Of a stretch of 4,961 nucleotides of DNA, positions 1 to 4,961 are shown piece after piece. Source of the DNA: a virus. Its lineage: Duplodnaviria; Heunggongvirae; Uroviricota; Caudoviricetes. Every line of letters begins with the position of its first letter. Within the stretch, counting starts at the first letter, position 1. Below the pieces are notes generated by a model. It searched no databases. It saw only the letters and a program-made list of their open reading frames with translations, and was not told where the DNA came from. The stretch is taken from IMG/VR virus record IMGVR_UViG_2698536450_000012, positions 1 through 4,961 of that record, one strand, 5' to 3'. A program made the position numbers and the translations under genes.

Positions 1-84
1 AATGGCAGTGGCTACAGCGACGGCACCTTCTTCCTTTATTGCCTGTTCGTCCGGAATGGCGGCGCAAATAAAGACTTTACTCAT
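1..84 (-). CDS. Hypothetical protein, 5' end only (gene continues past the left edge of the window); N-terminus MSKVFICAAIPDEQAIKEEGAVAVATAI
   Basis: ATG at 84..82 on the minus strand, with a GAGGT Shine-Dalgarno (reverse complement of 93..97) 8 nt upstream. The frame is open to the window edge (28 codons). It is absent from the ORF track because no stop lies inside the window. Confidence 0.5.
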   Translation of the reverse strand, partial: MSKVFICAAIPDEQAIKEEGAVAVATAI

Positions 85-163
85 TTTGTTTTACCTCATT
101 ACAGATTTAAGGGTGAACAAATCCCTGCCATTGCTGGCATATAAAAATGAAACTGGATATTAA

Positions 164-367
164 TTACGGCGCTGTTTTTAATCCTGCCGGGATTTCGTTA
201 TTGTCCATGTGAATAACTTTATCGACCGGATAACAGTTGCCGGGAATTTTCTGTTCCGCTGCGGCAGCCATGCATTCTTTCATTGAGTTGTACATGCCGG
301 TGATTGCATCAAGCGACTCACCAGTATTGAGATGTACAGTCAGAATGAGTATGAATAATGTGTTCAT
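164..367 (-). CDS. Small hypothetical protein (67 aa from the ATG) with a hydrophobic N-terminal segment (MNTLFILILTVHLNTG), possibly a signal peptide or membrane anchor, and two Cys in the C-terminal part
   Basis: ORF track 164..373. The ATG at 367..365 overlaps the TGA stop of the upstream ORF (366..364) as ATGA, which suggests translational coupling. GGAGAG lies 5 nt upstream. The track start at 373 is a GTG two codons further up. Confidence 0.55.
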   Translation of the reverse strand: MNTLFILILTVHLNTGESLDAITGMYNSMKECMAAAAEQKIPGNCYPVDKVIHMDNNEIPAGLKTAP

Positions 368-552
368 CGCCACTCTCCGAAAATACCGAGTTTAAGAAGG
401 GCAATTCTGGAGAGTATGGAATTGTCATTCAGCAGGTAGGGTTCATATTTTCTCATATTGATTGCATCCTCGGTGAAATCCCTGTTACTGAGCAGAACAC
501 CAATATTAAAGCACCCGTCAGACGTATTAACGTTTGGTAGTGACGTTTCCAT
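364..552 (-). CDS. Small hypothetical protein, 62 aa, no recognisable domain
   Basis: ATG at 552..550 lies 10 nt downstream of the rha stop (565..563). A GAGGA Shine-Dalgarno overlaps the rha stop codon with a 7-nt spacer. Same strand and operon context as rha. Confidence 0.55.
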   Translation of the reverse strand: METSLPNVNTSDGCFNIGVLLSNRDFTEDAINMRKYEPYLLNDNSILSRIALLKLGIFGEWR

Positions 553-562
553 TATCGCGTCC

Positions 563-1120
563 TCAACAATGAATTTTTAGCAATTGCTCCACAGTCATAT
601 TTTTAATTGCGCTCCGGTTTACAAGAGTCCATCCTTGTTTCTCCAGATAAAACCGGAAGGTATCCAGGGTGCAGACCATTGCGCCGTCAGGAACGGTTTC
701 AGTGAATTTGATATTGCCGTGTTCGTCGAGACGGATAACTAGGGTGCGTCCGTCCCCGTGAATCATTTTGTCGGGAGACGGGGCGTTATTCTGGCGCAGT
801 TCTTCCTCCATGCGATCGAACTCAGCGATGTAGGCTTCTTTGAAAGTTGCGGCTTTTTTACCTGTGAACCCCATCACCAGGAAAACGAAGCCGTTTTTGG
901 TGATTTGGTACATGGGGCGTTTTTCGCCTTTGGCGTCGGTGTAGGTAACGGGCGTAAAATTGCGCTCGTTAAAATCTTCAGAGCATTCTAGCGTTTCAAT
1001 TTTGCGCAGAACGTCCTTGTGCATTTTGCGGAAGAACTCTGCAACCGCAACAGACGTAGTGACAGCGCGACCATTTTCGATGGTTACGTCAGGGTGAGAA
1101 AGGGTAGGGATAGTAGCCAT
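563..1120 (-). CDS. rha: Phage regulatory protein, Rha family (N-terminal Rha domain MATIPTLSHPDVTIENGRAVTTSVAVAEFFRKMHKDVLRKIETLE...KGEKRPMYQITKNGFVFLVMGFTGKKAATFKEAYIAEFDRMEEEL, plus a C-terminal domain of unknown function)
   Basis: Recognised from memory as the Rha (Phage_pRha) family. Start placed at the ATG at 1120..1118, which has an AAGAGG Shine-Dalgarno (reverse complement of 1129..1134) 8 nt upstream. The ORF track extends the frame to 1417, but that extension contains a terminator-like hairpin with a U-tract and has no domain-like sequence. Confidence 0.8.
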   Translation of the reverse strand: MATIPTLSHPDVTIENGRAVTTSVAVAEFFRKMHKDVLRKIETLECSEDFNERNFTPVTYTDAKGEKRPMYQITKNGFVFLVMGFTGKKAATFKEAYIAEFDRMEEELRQNNAPSPDKMIHGDGRTLVIRLDEHGNIKFTETVPDGAMVCTLDTFRFYLEKQGWTLVNRSAIKNMTVEQLLKIHC

Positions 1121-1150
1121 AATGGCAGCCTCTTGGTTGAGTATTAATAA

Positions 1151-1189
1151 CTCACCACCAAGGTTTTCCACGACCATAAGGGTGGTGAG
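1151..1189 (-). promoter_or_regulatory. Perfect 9-bp inverted repeat (CTCACCACC / GGTGGTGAG) with a 21-nt loop, in the rha 5' leader about 20 nt upstream of the Shine-Dalgarno
   Basis: Read directly: 1151..1159 is the reverse complement of 1181..1189. As RNA on the minus strand the loop contains GUGGAAAAC. Confidence 0.4.
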
Positions 1190-1288
1190 GCGTACAGGGG
1201 TGGAAATACCGGTCAACCAAGAATCCGGCCAGCCTTGCAGCTGCCCTGCACGCCCCACCATAATCTGAATGTGGCTGTGCTTGACGCA

Positions 1289-1312
1289 TAAAAAAACCGC
1301 CTGAGCGCGGTT
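1289..1312 (-). terminator. Candidate intrinsic terminator on the minus strand (stem aaccgc/gcgguu, 6-nt loop, then U7)
   Basis: On the plus strand an A-run (1290..1296) precedes the hairpin at 1295..1312, so on the minus strand the hairpin is followed by UUUUUUU. The stem is short (4 GC and 2 AU pairs), so strength is moderate. Confidence 0.5.
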
Positions 1313-1372
1313 ATGCGCTTGATTGAATTCCGGGTTTCCACGCCCGGCACCCGTTTTATGAGGTGCAGGTGC

Positions 1373-1401
1373 ACTATAATTCCACCCGTTCTGGTTTTCA
1401 A
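1373..1401 (-). promoter_or_regulatory. Candidate sigma70 promoter on the minus strand: -35 TTGAAA (1401..1396), 17-bp spacer, -10 TATAGT (1378..1373); predicted start near 1366
   Basis: Both hexamers match consensus at 5 of 6 positions with the optimal 17-bp spacer. It lies about 75 nt upstream of the terminator at 1289..1312. Confidence 0.4.
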
Positions 1402-1904
1402 TAGCTACATTCAACATTTTCTCTTACCTTTCATCACCGAAGTGAACTTTGTTGATGCGGTGCCTGGTGCCTCCAGGTGACGTTAACCAGTTAACAATTA
1501 ACGCCGGATACAGAGAATCCACCCATAACACTGTTTTTGGTTTTAACTGTTCCGCGTGCGCTGAGCCGCATTCACCGCATCACAAAATTCACTTTAAAAA
1601 GGGCGGCAGAGCAGCCACGGAGTAAAACTGATACTGCCAAACGTCACCAGAAAATTGATAACAGAGGGCGTTGCAGCGGGGTTGTCACTTAAGCGTATGG
1701 TCAACCTGACAACCCGGTGTCCTCAACGGGGAAGGAATAACCCCGCCATACTTACCGCCGCGCCATTTCGCGGAGTGCCACAACCGGAAGCGCACGGTCG
1801 ACGAAAATTTAACGACAGGCTATCTATGAACCAGCAACCTCGCCGTGCACTTTCGCGTTATGCTCTGACTTTTCAGAGAAATATCCTTTCAGTAAACTGT
1901 CAGT

Positions 1905-1954
1905 GCCGGATGTTCACCCGTGTCCGGCGCACGCACTCCACTTCACCCGTGGAG
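1905..1954. other. Two adjacent stem-loops with a shared loop motif TTCACCCGTG (plus strand) / CACGGGUGAA (minus-strand RNA)
   Basis: Hairpin A has stem 1905..1910 / 1923..1928 (gccgga/tccggc) and a 12-nt loop. Hairpin B has stem 1936..1941 / 1949..1954 (ctccac/gtggag) and a 7-nt loop. The 10-mer TTCACCCGTG occurs at 1913..1922 and 1942..1951. Confidence 0.45.
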
Positions 1955-1993
1955 AACTCCTTAATTACCAACCTTAGCTTCGTTGGTTAGCTA

Positions 1994-2212
1994 TTAACGC
2001 GGGTATGTAATCATTCTGGCAATGCTTAATGCCGCTGCTTTTTCCAGATTGGTGATATCCTGCTCCAGAGCGGACAGATTTTCAGCCTGCTTAGCCCTGG
2101 CTTCATTGGCCCATTTCAGGTCCTGCGCTGCCTTAATTTTCTGGTGCATCCACTCATAAAGTTCATCATCGGTATAGTCTGGCGCGATGATGACGGGTTC
2201 TCGTTTCTGCAT
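1994..2212 (-). CDS. Small hypothetical phage protein, 72 aa (MQKREPVIIAPDYTDDELYEWMHQKIKAAQDLKWANEARAKQAENLSALEQDITNLEKAAALSIARMITYPR)
   Basis: ATG at 2212..2210 with an AAGGAG Shine-Dalgarno 5 nt upstream. The sequence looks protein-like (charged, helical). Same orientation as the leftward early operon. Confidence 0.65.
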   Translation of the reverse strand: MQKREPVIIAPDYTDDELYEWMHQKIKAAQDLKWANEARAKQAENLSALEQDITNLEKAAALSIARMITYPR

Positions 2213-2283
2213 GTCGGCTCCTTGTGGTTAGCGTTGCCTGCTTTTAACCACGTCAGGCGAGGTGGTATCCTCTGAGGGGTCTG

Positions 2284-2640
2284 TTACTCGAGAGGAAATT
2301 GGTTATGAATACAATCAAGTTTTCTTGCCCAGAATGTGGCGGCGAAGTCTTTGACACATCCTTTAAACCGCATGGCTCTGACAGTTTCGCGGGAGCCATC
2401 TGCAAAAATTGTGGTCACCTTGTAACTGAAGATGAGTCCTCGCAGTTTGATGACGAAATCGTTGACAATATCTTCGGTGCACTCACCAGAGACTTTCTGA
2501 AGTAAAGGCGCATACCGCTTAGTTACCGCTCTGATAATTCTTACCTGTCCGGCAATGGCGCTGATATCAATATAAAGCGCCATCGCTGTTTCTTTGCTGA
2601 TCCCTGGATGCCTTCCATTCTGATGTTTGACTTCGCCCAC
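2284..2640 (-). CDS. Alternative call: 118-aa ORF immediately downstream of the leftward early promoter (GTG start), fully overlapping the zinc-ribbon ORF on the opposite strand
   Basis: GTG at 2640..2638 with an AGAGGA Shine-Dalgarno and a 7-nt spacer, about 70 nt downstream of the candidate leftward promoter. Against it: 5 of 9 Arg codons are AGA/AGG, there is no recognisable domain, and antisense frames in the same register often stay open by chance. Confidence 0.3.
   Translation of the reverse strand: MGEVKHQNGRHPGISKETAMALYIDISAIAGQVRIIRAVTKRYAPLLQKVSGECTEDIVNDFVIKLRGLIFSYKVTTIFADGSRETVRAMRFKGCVKDFAATFWARKLDCIHNQFPLE
2305..2505 (+). CDS. Small C4 zinc-ribbon protein, 66 aa (CPEC ... CKNC), with an acidic C-terminal tail (EDESSQFDDEIVD)
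   Basis: ATG at 2305 with an AGAGGA Shine-Dalgarno and an 8-nt spacer. Two CxxC pairs are 23 residues apart. Codon usage is ordinary. It is antisense to, and in the same codon register as, the minus ORF 2284..2640, so only one of the two may be real. Confidence 0.55.
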   Translation: MNTIKFSCPECGGEVFDTSFKPHGSDSFAGAICKNCGHLVTEDESSQFDDEIVDNIFGALTRDFLK

Positions 2641-2718
2641 TGAGAAATCCTCTGTTTCCCCTTAACGCCGGGGTAGCGGAACTAAGACCTGTCGCACCGT
2701 TGTGCTTTGATGGAATAC

Positions 2719-2747
2719 ATTGTTCTCTCTAGGTGAACAAAAGTCAA
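2719..2747 (-). promoter_or_regulatory. Candidate leftward early promoter (pL-like) on the minus strand: -35 TTGACT (2747..2742), 17-bp spacer, -10 AACAAT (2724..2719), overlapped by an operator-like inverted repeat TGTTC-N9-GAACA (2721..2739)
   Basis: Same hexamers, spacer length and embedded inverted repeat as the rightward promoter at 3249..3277. It sits immediately downstream of the repressor terminator. Confidence 0.5.
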
Positions 2748-2761
2748 CATGATGAATACGC

Positions 2762-2791
2762 AAAAAAAAAAAAAAACCGCCTTGCGGCGGT
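2762..2791 (-). terminator. Strong intrinsic terminator of the repressor transcript (stem accgcc/ggcggu, GCAA tetraloop, then U15)
   Basis: On the plus strand A15 (2762..2776) is followed by ccgcc ttgc ggcgg (2777..2790). On the minus strand this is a GC hairpin followed by 15 U, about 25 nt downstream of the repressor stop (2813). Confidence 0.8.
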
Positions 2792-2812
2792 ATGATTCTG
2801 TAAAATAAAGAA

Positions 2813-3202
2813 TTATTTTTGTCGTGTTATTGGGTCGACGTATTCTGAGTAAAATTCGGTCAGTTTTTGGAGTCGCATTTGAAAAGCTGCCAGCATATTT
2901 CTACGTTCTACAGGTGGCAGGTTTCTGTAAACATCAAGCAGGGCCTTCTCGTCATCATCAAGCGCCTCTCTATTTGTCTCTTCTTTCCCTGTCAGTAGCC
3001 AAGAAAGGGAAACGTTTGTGGCTTCTGCAATTTTGGCTGCGGAATCTTTACTGATTGTTCCTCTTTTTTTCCATGCGTTGACTGATGAACGACCTACACC
3101 AGCGATACGCGCTAAATCTGAACCACTTAAATGATGCTGTTGAGAGATCGTATCTAACCTTTCTGCTAGCGGGGTGTCGTATTGCTTTTTTCTCATGTCC
3201 AT
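2813..3202 (-). CDS. Prophage repressor, XRE-type helix-turn-helix (cI / RacR / DicA-like), 129 aa
   Basis: Helix-turn-helix motif LSGSDLARIAGVGRSSVNAWKKRG. Divergent from the Cro-like gene. A consensus TATAAT ends 7 nt before the ATG, which predicts a leaderless transcript with no Shine-Dalgarno, as for lambda cI from pRM. Confidence 0.85.
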   Translation of the reverse strand: MDMRKKQYDTPLAERLDTISQQHHLSGSDLARIAGVGRSSVNAWKKRGTISKDSAAKIAEATNVSLSWLLTGKEETNREALDDDEKALLDVYRNLPPVERRNMLAAFQMRLQKLTEFYSEYVDPITRQK

Positions 3203-3208
3203 TTGGCA

Positions 3209-3236
3209 ATTATAACCGTTCAGTGAACACTAACAA
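3209..3236 (-). promoter_or_regulatory. Candidate repressor-maintenance promoter (pRM-like) on the minus strand: -35 TTGTTA (3236..3231), 16-bp spacer, -10 TATAAT (3214..3209); the spacer contains the palindrome GTTCAgTGAAC (3218..3228)
   Basis: Hexamers and spacing read directly. The predicted transcription start coincides with the A of the repressor ATG at 3202. Confidence 0.5.
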
Positions 3237-3248
3237 TTCCTCGAGGTG

Positions 3249-3277
3249 TTGACTTGTGTTCGTTTTAAGTGAACAAT
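3249..3277 (+). promoter_or_regulatory. Candidate rightward early promoter (pR-like): -35 TTGACT (3249..3254), 17-bp spacer, -10 AACAAT (3272..3277), overlapped by an operator-like inverted repeat TGTTC-N9-GAACA (3257..3275)
   Basis: Back-to-back with the pRM-like promoter. A GGAGG Shine-Dalgarno (3297..3301) precedes the ATG at 3306. Confidence 0.5.
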
Positions 3278-3305
3278 CGTTGTGGTTAGTTGAACTGGAG
3301 GTTGT

Positions 3306-3581
3306 ATGACAGCATTGGACAAAGCAATAAAGATTGCTGGTGGTATTCGTCCGCTAGGGCGTGCAATAGGGGCTTGGCCATCTCAAATACACAAATGGGC
3401 AAATGAATACAATGGTCGAGTGCCGACGGGAGAACGGGTTCGTCAAATTTATATTGCAACTGGGGTTACTCCTCATGAATTGCGACCAGATTTATACCCG
3501 AATCCAACTGACGGGTTGCCTGCTGGAGATAAGGCTAACACACCAAATACACCGGAGTTGATTCATGAAAATCAAGCATGA
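3306..3581 (+). CDS. ydaS: Cro-like DNA-binding regulator, YdaS family, 91 aa
   Basis: Divergent from the repressor, with a GGAGG Shine-Dalgarno. The motif GVTPHELRPDLYP is typical of the YdaS / Cro-type family as recalled from memory. Confidence 0.8.
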   Translation: MTALDKAIKIAGGIRPLGRAIGAWPSQIHKWANEYNGRVPTGERVRQIYIATGVTPHELRPDLYPNPTDGLPAGDKANTPNTPELIHENQA

Positions 3582-3990
3582 ACACATCCGCATGGCGATG
3601 AATGCCTGGGCGCGTCCTGATGGCGAAAAAGTTCCAGCAGCTGGAATAACCCAGGCTTATTTTGAGTTGGGTATGACGTTTCCTGAACTGTATGACGACA
3701 GCCATCCGGAAGCCCTGGCTCGCAATACACAGAAAATTTTCCGCTGGGTAGAGAAAGACACCCCTGATGCAGTTGAAAAAATTCAGGCGTTGTTACCAGC
3801 GATCGAAAAGGCAATGCCACCTTTGCTGGTGGCCAGAATGCGCAGCCACAGTTCAGCTTATTTTCGGGAGCTGGTGGAGACGCGGGAGCGACTGGTGAGA
3901 GACGCTGATGATTTTGTCGCAGTGGCAATCGCCGGTTTCAATCAGATGAACCGTGGTGGCCCGGCAGGAAATGCTGTGGCAGTACATTGA
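3565..3990 (+). CDS. ydaT: YdaT-family regulator, 141 aa, in the cII-equivalent position
   Basis: The N-terminus MKIKHEHI and the C-terminal ...AVAVH match what I recall of Rac YdaT. The start overlaps the ydaS-like stop by 17 nt. GGAG lies 8 nt upstream. Confidence 0.8.
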   Translation: MKIKHEHIRMAMNAWARPDGEKVPAAGITQAYFELGMTFPELYDDSHPEALARNTQKIFRWVEKDTPDAVEKIQALLPAIEKAMPPLLVARMRSHSSAYFRELVETRERLVRDADDFVAVAIAGFNQMNRGGPAGNAVAVH

Positions 3991-4061
3991 CTGACAATAG
4001 CCATATCGAATCGCTTCCGGCAACTCGTGAGTAAAATGATTCGGTATCAGAAGAGGTGAGT

Positions 4062-4961
4062 ATGGCTAACGCCTGGCTCAGATTATGGCATGACATGCCA
4101 AATGACCCTAAGTGGCGAACAATTGCCAGGGTGTCAGGGCAGCCAATTGCAACAGTGATGGCAGTGTATATCCACCTCCTGGTGAGCGCGTCACGAAATG
4201 TCACGCGAGGTCACATTGATGTCACGACAGAAGATTTGGCAAGTGCGCTCGACGTGACAGAAGAGGTAATTGATTCAATTTTGCAGACGATGCAGGGGCG
4301 GGTACTTGATGGTGATTTAATCACTGGATGGGAAAAACGCCAGGTGCTGAAAGAGGACAACGGCAATATTTCGCAAACCGCAAAATCTCCTGCAGAGCGC
4401 AAGAGGGCGCAGCGAGAGAGGGAAAGAAAGCGGGAACAAAATGGCGATTGTCACGGCGCGTCACGAAATGTCACGCACATGTCACGACGAGTCACGACAG
4501 ATAAAGATACAGATAAAGATACAGATCAAGAAGATCAAAACACTATGGTCCATGGCGTAAAAAACGCCACGAACCAGGCAGGGGATGTTCAGACCGTCAA
4601 TCCTGGTCAGCCAGCAGGCACGACACCGGAAGCCGATTCAGCGTATGCGCTGAAAGCCGATTCGGGCGCTGTGCAGCAGGTGATGACCGCAAGGCCGGAG
4701 CAATCACACCAACTGCAGCAGCCTGAAGCCGATTCCGCCATTCAGCGGGAAGCCGATCGGGTAGTCCCGGAAAGCACCGGGCAGTCTGTGGGACGAGTGG
4801 ATTATCCGGATGTGTTCGAACAGGTCTGGCGGGAATACCCGTTGCGTGCCGGGGCAAACCCGAAGAAATCCGCTTTCAGTGCCTGGAAGGCCAGATTGCG
4901 CGAGGGGGTGCCACCAGAGACCATGCTGGATGGTGTGAGGCGTTACGCGAGATACCTGGCG
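4062..4961 (+). CDS. Phage replication initiation / replisome-organizer-type protein, 3' end outside the window (300 codons open to the edge); YdaU / lambda-O-equivalent position; family assignment unverified
   Basis: ATG at 4062 with an AGAGGTGA Shine-Dalgarno. Translated by hand with no stop to position 4961 (MANAWLRLWHDMPNDPKWRTIARVSGQPIATVMAVYIHLL...). Two iteron clusters lie inside the gene. It is absent from the ORF track because it has no stop. Confidence 0.8.
   Translation, partial: MANAWLRLWHDMPNDPKWRTIARVSGQPIATVMAVYIHLLVSASRNVTRGHIDVTTEDLASALDVTEEVIDSILQTMQGRVLDGDLITGWEKRQVLKEDNGNISQTAKSPAERKRAQRERERKREQNGDCHGASRNVTHMSRRVTTDKDTDKDTDQEDQNTMVHGVKNATNQAGDVQTVNPGQPAGTTPEADSAYALKADSGAVQQVMTARPEQSHQLQQPEADSAIQREADRVVPESTGQSVGRVDYPDVFEQVWREYPLRAGANPKKSAFSAWKARLREGVPPETMLDGVRRYARYLA
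4190..4230. repeat. Iteron cluster 1: four GTCACG/GTCACA repeats at 10-11 bp spacing (4190, 4200, 4210, 4221)
   Basis: Read directly: gtcacgaaat gtcacgcgag gtcacattgat gtcacgacag. The spacing is helically phased. Confidence 0.6.
4450..4541. repeat. Iteron cluster 2: five GTCACG repeats (4450, 4460, 4470, 4481, 4491), then an A-rich tract with a tandem 12-bp repeat CAGATAAAGATA x2 (4498..4521) and two GATC sites (4524, 4533); candidate phage origin of replication
   Basis: Read directly. The 18-mer GCGTCACGAAATGTCACG is shared between the two clusters (4187..4204 and 4457..4474). Iterons followed by an AT-rich segment inside the initiator gene mirror the lambda origin within gene O. Confidence 0.6.

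Follow-up and report, generated by a model that had tools for sequence, protein, structure and literature searches.

A probable antisense pair of co-inherited genes sharing the same codon triplets in the early region of lambdoid prophages

The 4,961-nucleotide (nt) stretch of DNA analysed here, referred to as the window (positions 1 to 4,961 of IMG/VR virus record IMGVR_UViG_2698536450_000012), comes from a Qin/Kim-like lambdoid E. coli prophage, of which it carries the immunity and early region. Near-identical DNA is present in about 940 of 5,426 complete E. coli genomes, and several phage records contain it too. Within this region the same ~200 nt are open on both strands, as a plus-strand open reading frame (ORF) encoding a zinc-ribbon protein of 66 amino acids (aa) lies entirely within a minus-strand ORF (Table 1). 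The register of the two is exact: plus codons begin at 3n+1 (2305), plus codon positions 1/2/3 pair with minus positions 3/2/1, and beyond its non-overlapping residues the 99-aa conserved form of the minus ORF uses the very codon triplets of the plus ORF, read from the opposite strand. The two ORFs, the AGAGGA motif ahead of each and the codon register had been described in a first-pass annotation of this DNA, as had the location of the minus ORF directly downstream of a pL-like promoter, and all of these were confirmed in the sequence. The ORF list gives the plus ORF as 2299..2505 with a TTG start; the conserved start is the ATG at 2305.

Domain searches, which had been proposed as a check, assigned both products to existing families. 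The plus protein matched NCBIfam NF047912 (ECs_2282 family putative zinc-binding protein) with 57.4 bits against a cutoff of 37, over residues 4-59 of 66, and its two CxxC pairs could bind zinc. The minus protein matched phrog_21318 over the full length of the profile (E = 3.3e-66), residues 20-118 of its long form aligning with profile positions 1-99 of 99. Public annotation is split between the two ORFs: phage and older RefSeq records call the minus ORF, and newer RefSeq records call the plus ORF under the NF047912 family name. The tag ECs_2282 now denotes the 66-aa zinc-ribbon ORF (protein version.2; our locus L114, O157:H7 Sakai, NC_002695.2 2249953-2250153). In the supplement of a 2017 ribosome profiling (Ribo-seq) study of Sakai (PMC5597208), ECs2282 stood for another ORF, of 165 nt and some 60 nt distant (2249591-2249755 in the old coordinates). 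Since the tag has moved to another ORF, values in older expression tables do not concern the plus gene, and the Ribo-seq values listed under ECs2282 were dropped as data for it. A literature search found no paper on this gene pair.

Taken as one sequence, the overlap exceeds chance by little. For the plus protein written with E. coli codon usage, an antisense frame in this register would be open across 66 codons with P = 0.22; such a frame is poor in stops because only the sense codons TTA, CTA and TCA close it. The 52 extra open codons of the minus frame have P = 0.07. The window holds another 118-aa antisense ORF, inside the ydaT-like gene (3572..3928, minus strand) and in a different register, a reminder that long antisense ORFs arise by chance. 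Codon usage, which had been said to favour the plus ORF, does not separate the two, since values similar to the codon adaptation index are 0.72 for plus and 0.64 for minus and both fall within the 0.59-0.72 of the window's other genes. It is the comparative evidence that lifts the overlap above chance.

Loci for this comparison were gathered with the plus protein and, separately, with the minus protein, neither set being chosen for the other frame. De-duplication left 48 unique sequences from at least eight clades (E. coli, Klebsiella, Citrobacter, Enterobacter and metagenomes), which were aligned free of gaps between the plus ATG and minus codon M20. Protein identity in the set falls as low as about 50% for plus (48-52%) and 32% for minus. 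Changes were counted by parsimony on a neighbour-joining tree. Both ORFs are present in every family member found, and no member bearing only one of the two was found in what is a small family; one decayed copy with an indel (L153) has both frames broken. Profile searches returned 17 proteins for the plus family and only nine clusters for the minus family, the latter among 1.8 billion representative proteins. A GTDB genome scan gave nothing beyond generic zinc ribbons (L006, L007), and scans of viral contigs aimed at the most distant members gave nothing useful. A simple four-class omega test was confounded because doubly nonsynonymous changes fall mostly at codon position 2, and it was superseded by position- and type-matched comparisons.

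The comparison points clearly to the plus frame as the bearer of the dominant purifying selection in the overlap. Changes there number 103/46/167 at plus codon positions 1/2/3, and of all six frames plus has the smallest omega (0.37). The plus ORF has 66 codons in nearly all clades, while two distant homologs from the databases have 62 and 67 aa, and its ATG and stop codon are kept across clades, down to 48-52% identity. C8, C11, C33 and C36 are invariant across all intact homologs. A purine-rich Shine-Dalgarno (SD) sequence stands at constant spacing in every clade despite differing flanks (AAGGAGG, AGAAGGAAG, AGAAAGGAA), and in some distant clades the minus ORF stops short of it.

These observations bear on the explanation that only the minus ORF is a gene and that the zinc-ribbon ORF is its antisense shadow. 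The pL-like promoter directly upstream of the minus ORF and the calls in phage and older RefSeq records would fit such a shadow, as would the nonsense alleles of the plus frame. Of the 48 unique sequences, 44 keep this frame intact; the others, all within E. coli, carry the alleles E14* or E44*. E14* (GAA to TAA, 2344) was found in 19 of the 106 loci first fetched and in further metagenome-locus copies, and changes Phe to Leu in the minus protein; E44* (GAG to TAG, 2434) was found in one locus and is silent on the minus strand. The minus frame is intact in all loci with these alleles. The first-pass annotation had held that stops in one frame would identify the shadow, but this test is misleading here: the stops hit the plus frame only, yet plus is the more constrained frame in the long term. 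Read as minus, the overlap has more changes at position 1 (167) than at position 3 (103; binomial p = 6e-5), a pattern which differs from that of the minus ORF outside the overlap (57/45/93 at minus positions 1/2/3; Fisher p = 4e-6), and purifying selection in the minus frame alone therefore cannot explain it. The naive omega of minus in the overlap is 0.84. The conserved ATG, SD sites, length, stop and cysteine quartet of the plus ORF also argue against a shadow, as does the 5' element, described below, that it shares with sieB. We consider it very improbable that the minus ORF is the only gene; the nonsense alleles have the look of a recent loss, from prophages that are redundant or decaying. 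The lean of the first-pass annotation towards the plus ORF as a gene thus finds support in its greater constraint and in its curated family.

The start of the minus ORF had been placed at GTG 2640, giving 118 aa; ATG 2583 is the probable start instead. The 19 codons up to the GTG have about 30% nucleotide identity in distant homologs, are frameshifted in some E. coli copies (L067 and L083), and show changes at codon positions 1/2/3 of 18/13/10, without coding periodicity. The conserved minus ORF is therefore the 99-aa form, and the PHROG profile and the older RefSeq gene call have this length too. GTG 2640, with its strong AGAGGA, may be the actual start in E. coli. In all members the minus ORF begins no more than four codons from M20 and terminates within a few codons of the plus ATG, and an SD precedes its start in every distant clade.

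Outside the overlap, the minus frame gives clear signs of selection at the amino-acid level. In its 26 non-overlapping codons omega is lower than in any of the other five frames, at 0.20 when transversions are counted (p = 8e-8) and 0.65 with transitions (p = 0.02), and Gly82, Ala83, Val89, Pro68 and Leu91 are each retained through 3-4 synonymous codons, the plus-strand reading there being scrambled. None of the 48 unique sequences interrupts the minus frame. Under selection on the plus frame only, about 13 stop-creating changes would be expected, 7.3 of them plus-synonymous, and none was seen; the probability of this is roughly 1e-4 to 1e-2, by codon-bias treatment. These counts lend good support to selection keeping the minus frame open. 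Because no sequence carries a stop, a ribosome initiating at 2583 must traverse the overlap.

Amino-acid-level selection on the part of the minus protein encoded by the overlap is moderately supported by the alignment. Changes synonymous on both strands occurred 2-4 times faster than those synonymous on plus and nonsynonymous on minus (transversions p = 6e-4), and the minus replacements arising from plus-synonymous changes are more conservative by BLOSUM than expected (p = 1e-4 with uniform weights). Plus codons 36-42, a block chosen post hoc, show 0 plus-synonymous changes in any clade against about 13 expected.

The plus gene lies inside the pL operon, opposed to pL and behind a sieB-type 5' element. 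The ~35-nt core of this element, GCCTGyCTTTTmACCACnTCAGGCnnGGTGGT, contains the dyad ACCAC-N10-GTGGT and lies 54 nt before lambda sieB and 74 nt before P22 sieB. In other prophages this element stands ahead of several unrelated ORFs, every one of them opposed to the early-left operon and provided with its own SD, and it also precedes the plus-type ORF of a very distant homolog (L110). In an Enterobacter prophage (L094), sieB and the zinc-ribbon gene stand in tandem. One of the ORFs behind the element is an unannotated 82-aa two-helix membrane ORF of Qin-type prophages, present in about 1,000 E. coli genomes. The element has the look of a portable 5' cassette that would serve prophage-expressed genes, and it may act as a promoter or 5' untranslated region. 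Expression of P22 sieB from the prophage has been reported (PMC10883804). In the clade whose module follows cro (L088, L089, L105, L109), the plus-type ORF has another conserved flank (TTGGTGCCGAACCTTCCCCCGGTATATCCTGACGG) and a strong AAGGAGG before it, in a region some 30-80 nt upstream, and the sieB-type element sits elsewhere in these loci. The minus ORF always runs in the direction of early transcription: it opens the pL operon in the E. coli, C. freundii and Enterobacter types, and some Klebsiella and Citrobacter phages have it on the pR side, as the next ORF behind cro.

About 50 nt past the plus stop, a hairpin of 8-11 bp is followed by a T-rich stretch (2587-2600). The hairpin is kept in every clade, with 89.8% of cells paired and one pair covarying UA/CG. 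Its 3' arm holds the minus start codon, and minus codons 85, 86 and 92, which lie in its arms, show zero synonymous change. The hairpin may serve as a terminator of the plus transcript, as an occlusion of the minus start, or as both. The plus gene looks like a self-contained unit in the sieB slot, with a putative promoter and a putative terminator. A conserved hairpin, the nucleotide-invariant block at plus codons 36-42 and a leftward operon rich in small RNAs (DicF, isrK, C4) would also be in keeping with a segment conserved as RNA or DNA in which neither protein matters, for example one that exerts antisense-RNA control of the pL operon as P22 sas does on sieB mRNA. Such a role would not account for the strong triplet periodicity, in two different frames over adjoining segments, or for both frames remaining open, and an Rfam search matched no family within 2284-2640. 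We regard it as scarcely credible, and as the least probable of the explanations considered.

There remains the explanation that only the plus product is functional, the minus frame being translated or merely open and its overlap-encoded two-thirds being a passenger. In one variant an open minus frame would serve to keep the pL or pR transcript covered by ribosomes along the inverted cassette, averting Rho-dependent polarity on ydfC and DicF; in another, only the N-terminal peptide of the minus product matters. Besides the dominance of plus selection in the overlap, the natural scarcity of stops in an in-register antisense frame and the merely moderate outcome of the minus amino-acid-level tests, a passenger is favoured by two results which weigh against a pair of functional proteins. 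In the E. coli clade alone the changes in the overlap (55/10/19) have the pattern of plain coding by a single plus gene, and among plus-position-1 transversions the minus-synonymous rate (0.31) shows no excess over the minus-nonsynonymous rate (0.34). Other points weigh against such a pair as well. With codon-usage weights the BLOSUM test gives only p = 0.023, and its negative control gave p = 0.058 unweighted; taken as a whole, the plus-synonymous sites are not significantly over-dispersed (p = 0.09). All of these statistics rest on mosaic, recombining phage DNA. Plus nonsense is found in a sizeable minority of E. coli copies, with 3 real events against 7.7 expected without selection, and at a rate so near the unselected one the plus gene would be dispensable or decaying in those E. 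coli. Scanning for the sigma-70 consensus gave no promoter upstream of the plus ORF, and an extended -10 promoter within the 5' element (TGgTATCCT) was rejected, as the motif is missing from the lambda and P22 copies. The AlphaFold2 models are of low confidence (predicted local distance difference test scores of 64 and 57 for the two proteins), and family, defence-system, PDB and fold searches gave no functional clue for either protein.

Against a passenger, the 26 free minus codons are clearly selected, and the frame that follows them is then open throughout where about 13 stop-creating events were expected. Doubly synonymous changes outpace plus-synonymous-only changes, the identity of the minus protein in the overlap is about that of its free part, and in every case the minus ORF stops no more than a few codons from where the plus ORF starts. 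We give the passenger explanation a real though minor chance. The reading that we favour, with some confidence, is that the two ORFs are a co-inherited antisense pair of protein-coding genes written in the same codon triplets, namely a zinc-ribbon gene in the sieB slot and an early gene. The first-pass annotation had left open that both ORFs are real; the comparative data favour this option, the minus ORF also being conserved as a coding frame.

The searches with the minus protein, which is a basic protein of 99 aa, gave no match in Pfam, NCBIfam or PADLOC except for a sub-threshold Protein L B1 domain. Its low-confidence model predicts a folded alpha/beta protein, and Foldseek with this model found nothing in the PDB below E = 0.3. 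PDB-sequence profile searches gave no lead for either protein. Since the minus ORF is the first pL gene, a lambda N-type antiterminator was considered for it and rejected: it has no Pfam, NCBIfam or PHROG match to N, and its N-terminus (MALYIDISAIAGQ) is hydrophobic; a nut site was not searched for.

The layout of the locus suggests how an antisense pair of genes could be used. The plus gene takes the slot that sieB has in lambda and P22, within the early-left operon, opposed to it and behind the shared 5' element, and it would therefore probably have its own transcription in the lysogen, where the repressor keeps pL shut. As the first ORF of the pL (or post-cro pR) transcript, the minus ORF would be made only early in lytic growth. 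With 200 nt shared in identical triplets, transcription from pL (or pR) would run head-on through the plus gene and give a fully complementary RNA, and the two products would be mutually exclusive. What the sequences show is the conservation of the two frames, the 5' element common to the plus gene and sieB, the genomic settings and the hairpin, whereas transcription and translation, the exclusion of one product by the other and the biochemical role of each protein are inferred. The built-in switch proposed in the first-pass annotation is plausible by analogy, as it fits the known layout of lambda and P22, where the prophage-expressed sieB is likewise antisense in the pL operon. It is a more speculative step, which we put forward as a tentative possibility, to see here a hard-wired two-state module that makes the zinc-ribbon protein in the lysogen and the other protein early in lytic growth, both being selected and co-inherited across genera and the strand translated being the state of the switch.

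The neighbouring features of the window are listed in Table 1. The pL-like promoter and pR are mirror images and together form a 31-nt inverted repeat. The pL-like promoter drives a leftward operon in the order minus ORF, ydfC (1994..2212), DicF, STnc100-like region, isrK, C4 antisense RNA and Rha gene. The pL leader at 2659-2690 (minus strand) shares homology with the sequence that, in ydfA/ydfB-type prophages, encodes the N-terminal part of the first ORF of the pL operon (…SATPALRGN…; L003 2973-3209), and the zinc-ribbon/minus module has therefore seemingly replaced ydfA-ydfB by recombination within that ORF. The small-RNA matches (1178-1652, minus strand) lie downstream of ydfC and just upstream of the Rha gene, and this string together with the Rha gene looks like a P1/P7-type c4-ant module fused to the dicF operon. 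A 284-aa ORF at 563-1417 (minus strand) overlaps the C4 and isrK RNA matches with its upstream part; its true product is probably a 186-aa Rha protein from ATG 1123. The replication-protein gene contains clusters of GTCACG-containing repeats at 4190-4228 and 4450-4498 and a perfect 12-nt tandem at 4497-4520, and these repeats (4190-4520, plus strand) look like an iteron-type origin inside an O-like gene.

Table 1. Features of the overlapping ORFs and their surroundings in the window; the last four rows give copies of the 5' element core in the coordinates of other loci.
Feature	Position	Strand	Details
Plus ORF, zinc ribbon	2305..2505	+	66 aa; CPEC at residues 8-11, CKNC at 33-36; ECs_2282 family
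Minus ORF, long form	2284..2640	-	118 aa; GTG start
Minus ORF, conserved form	2284..2583	-	99 aa; start ATG 2583-2581; residues 1-26 beyond the overlap
Non-conserved extension of minus ORF	2584..2640	-	19 codons, up to GTG 2640
Shine-Dalgarno	2291..2296	+	AGAGGA, 8 nt before ATG 2305
Shine-Dalgarno-like site	2653-2648	-	AGAGGA, 7 nt before GTG 2640
Plus codons 36-42	2410..2430		TGT GGT CAC CTT GTA ACT GAA; minus F-S-Y-K-V-T-T; zero synonymous change
sieB-type 5' element	2235..2271	+	CCTGCTTTTAACCACGTCAGGCGAGGTGGTATCCTCT; 34 nt upstream of plus ATG
Hairpin	2552..2586		Predicted folds; core arms ATGGCGCT (2555-2562) and AGCGCCAT (2576-2583), 13-nt loop
pL-like promoter	2747..2719	-	TTGACT-17-AACAAT, with operator-like repeat
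pRM-like promoter and terminator of repressor gene	2791-2762		
CI-type repressor gene	2813..3202	-	
pR	3249..3277	+	Hexamers identical to pL-like promoter
YdaS/Cro-like gene	3306..3581	+	
YdaT-like gene	3565..3990	+	
DicF	1601-1652	-	Rfam match
STnc100-like region	1448-1589	-	Below threshold
C4 a1/b1 target	1327-1379	-	Sub-threshold match
isrK	1290-1366	-	Ends in terminator
C4 antisense RNA	1178-1265	-	
Element core, lambda (L156)	1201-1232		
Element core, P22 (L157)	1201-1232		
Element core, L111	1501-1537		
Element core, L109	2266-2307		

To our knowledge, very few antisense pairs in bacteria or phages have evolutionary support for both frames, most being known from expression data and young ORFs. 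The present pair is old enough for comparison across genera, and its annotation in public records flips strand from one record to another. Separation-of-function alleles are possible, synonymous on one strand and nonsense on the other, and E44* is a natural example. If confirmed, the pair would be a good test case for dual coding, and genome pipelines should be allowed to keep both ORFs. The plus gene also adds a member to the genes which ride in the sieB slot of lambdoid prophages.

Antisense overlapping genes, such as laoB, ano, asa and pop, have been described in E. coli O157:H7 (PMC5810103, PMC5960689, PMC6294744, PMC7103648). As in those cases, a coding ORF is embedded whole and antisense in another ORF, in the same organism group, and pipelines keep one of the two. 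Those cases are said to rest mainly on RNA sequencing, Ribo-seq and phenotypes, and their embedded ORFs are reportedly young, taxonomically narrow and weakly selected. In contrast, the present pair is known from sequence comparison, with frames that are co-conserved across several enterobacterial genera; of its two ORFs the short embedded one is under the stronger constraint, and both are read in the same codon triplets.

Antisense RNAs also take part in phage switches, as do lambda OOP against cII and P22 sas against sieB (PMC7067206, PMC12197685). The locus described here resembles them in its predicted convergent transcription of an immunity or early region and in the complementary RNAs that could set which product is made. 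OOP and sas are short non-coding RNAs, whereas the antisense partner here would be the mRNA of a conserved protein.

Morons are self-contained prophage transcription units inserted between phage genes. The plus gene is like them in being a small ORF with a portable 5' element, which fronts unrelated ORFs elsewhere, and with a downstream hairpin and T-rich tail. It is unlike them in lying inside the coding sequence of an opposed gene, where morons normally lie between genes, and its promoter and terminator are predicted ones.

Finally, sieB of lambda and P22, the superinfection exclusion gene in the pL operon, shares with the plus gene the 5' element, a similar distance from it to the start, the orientation against pL and the position just downstream of the first pL gene. 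The two proteins are unrelated, a 66-aa zinc ribbon here and a membrane protein of about 185-190 aa there. The arrangement of the early gene differs as well: lambda N and P22 gene 24 stop where sieB ends, whereas the early ORF here reads through the whole of the inverted gene.

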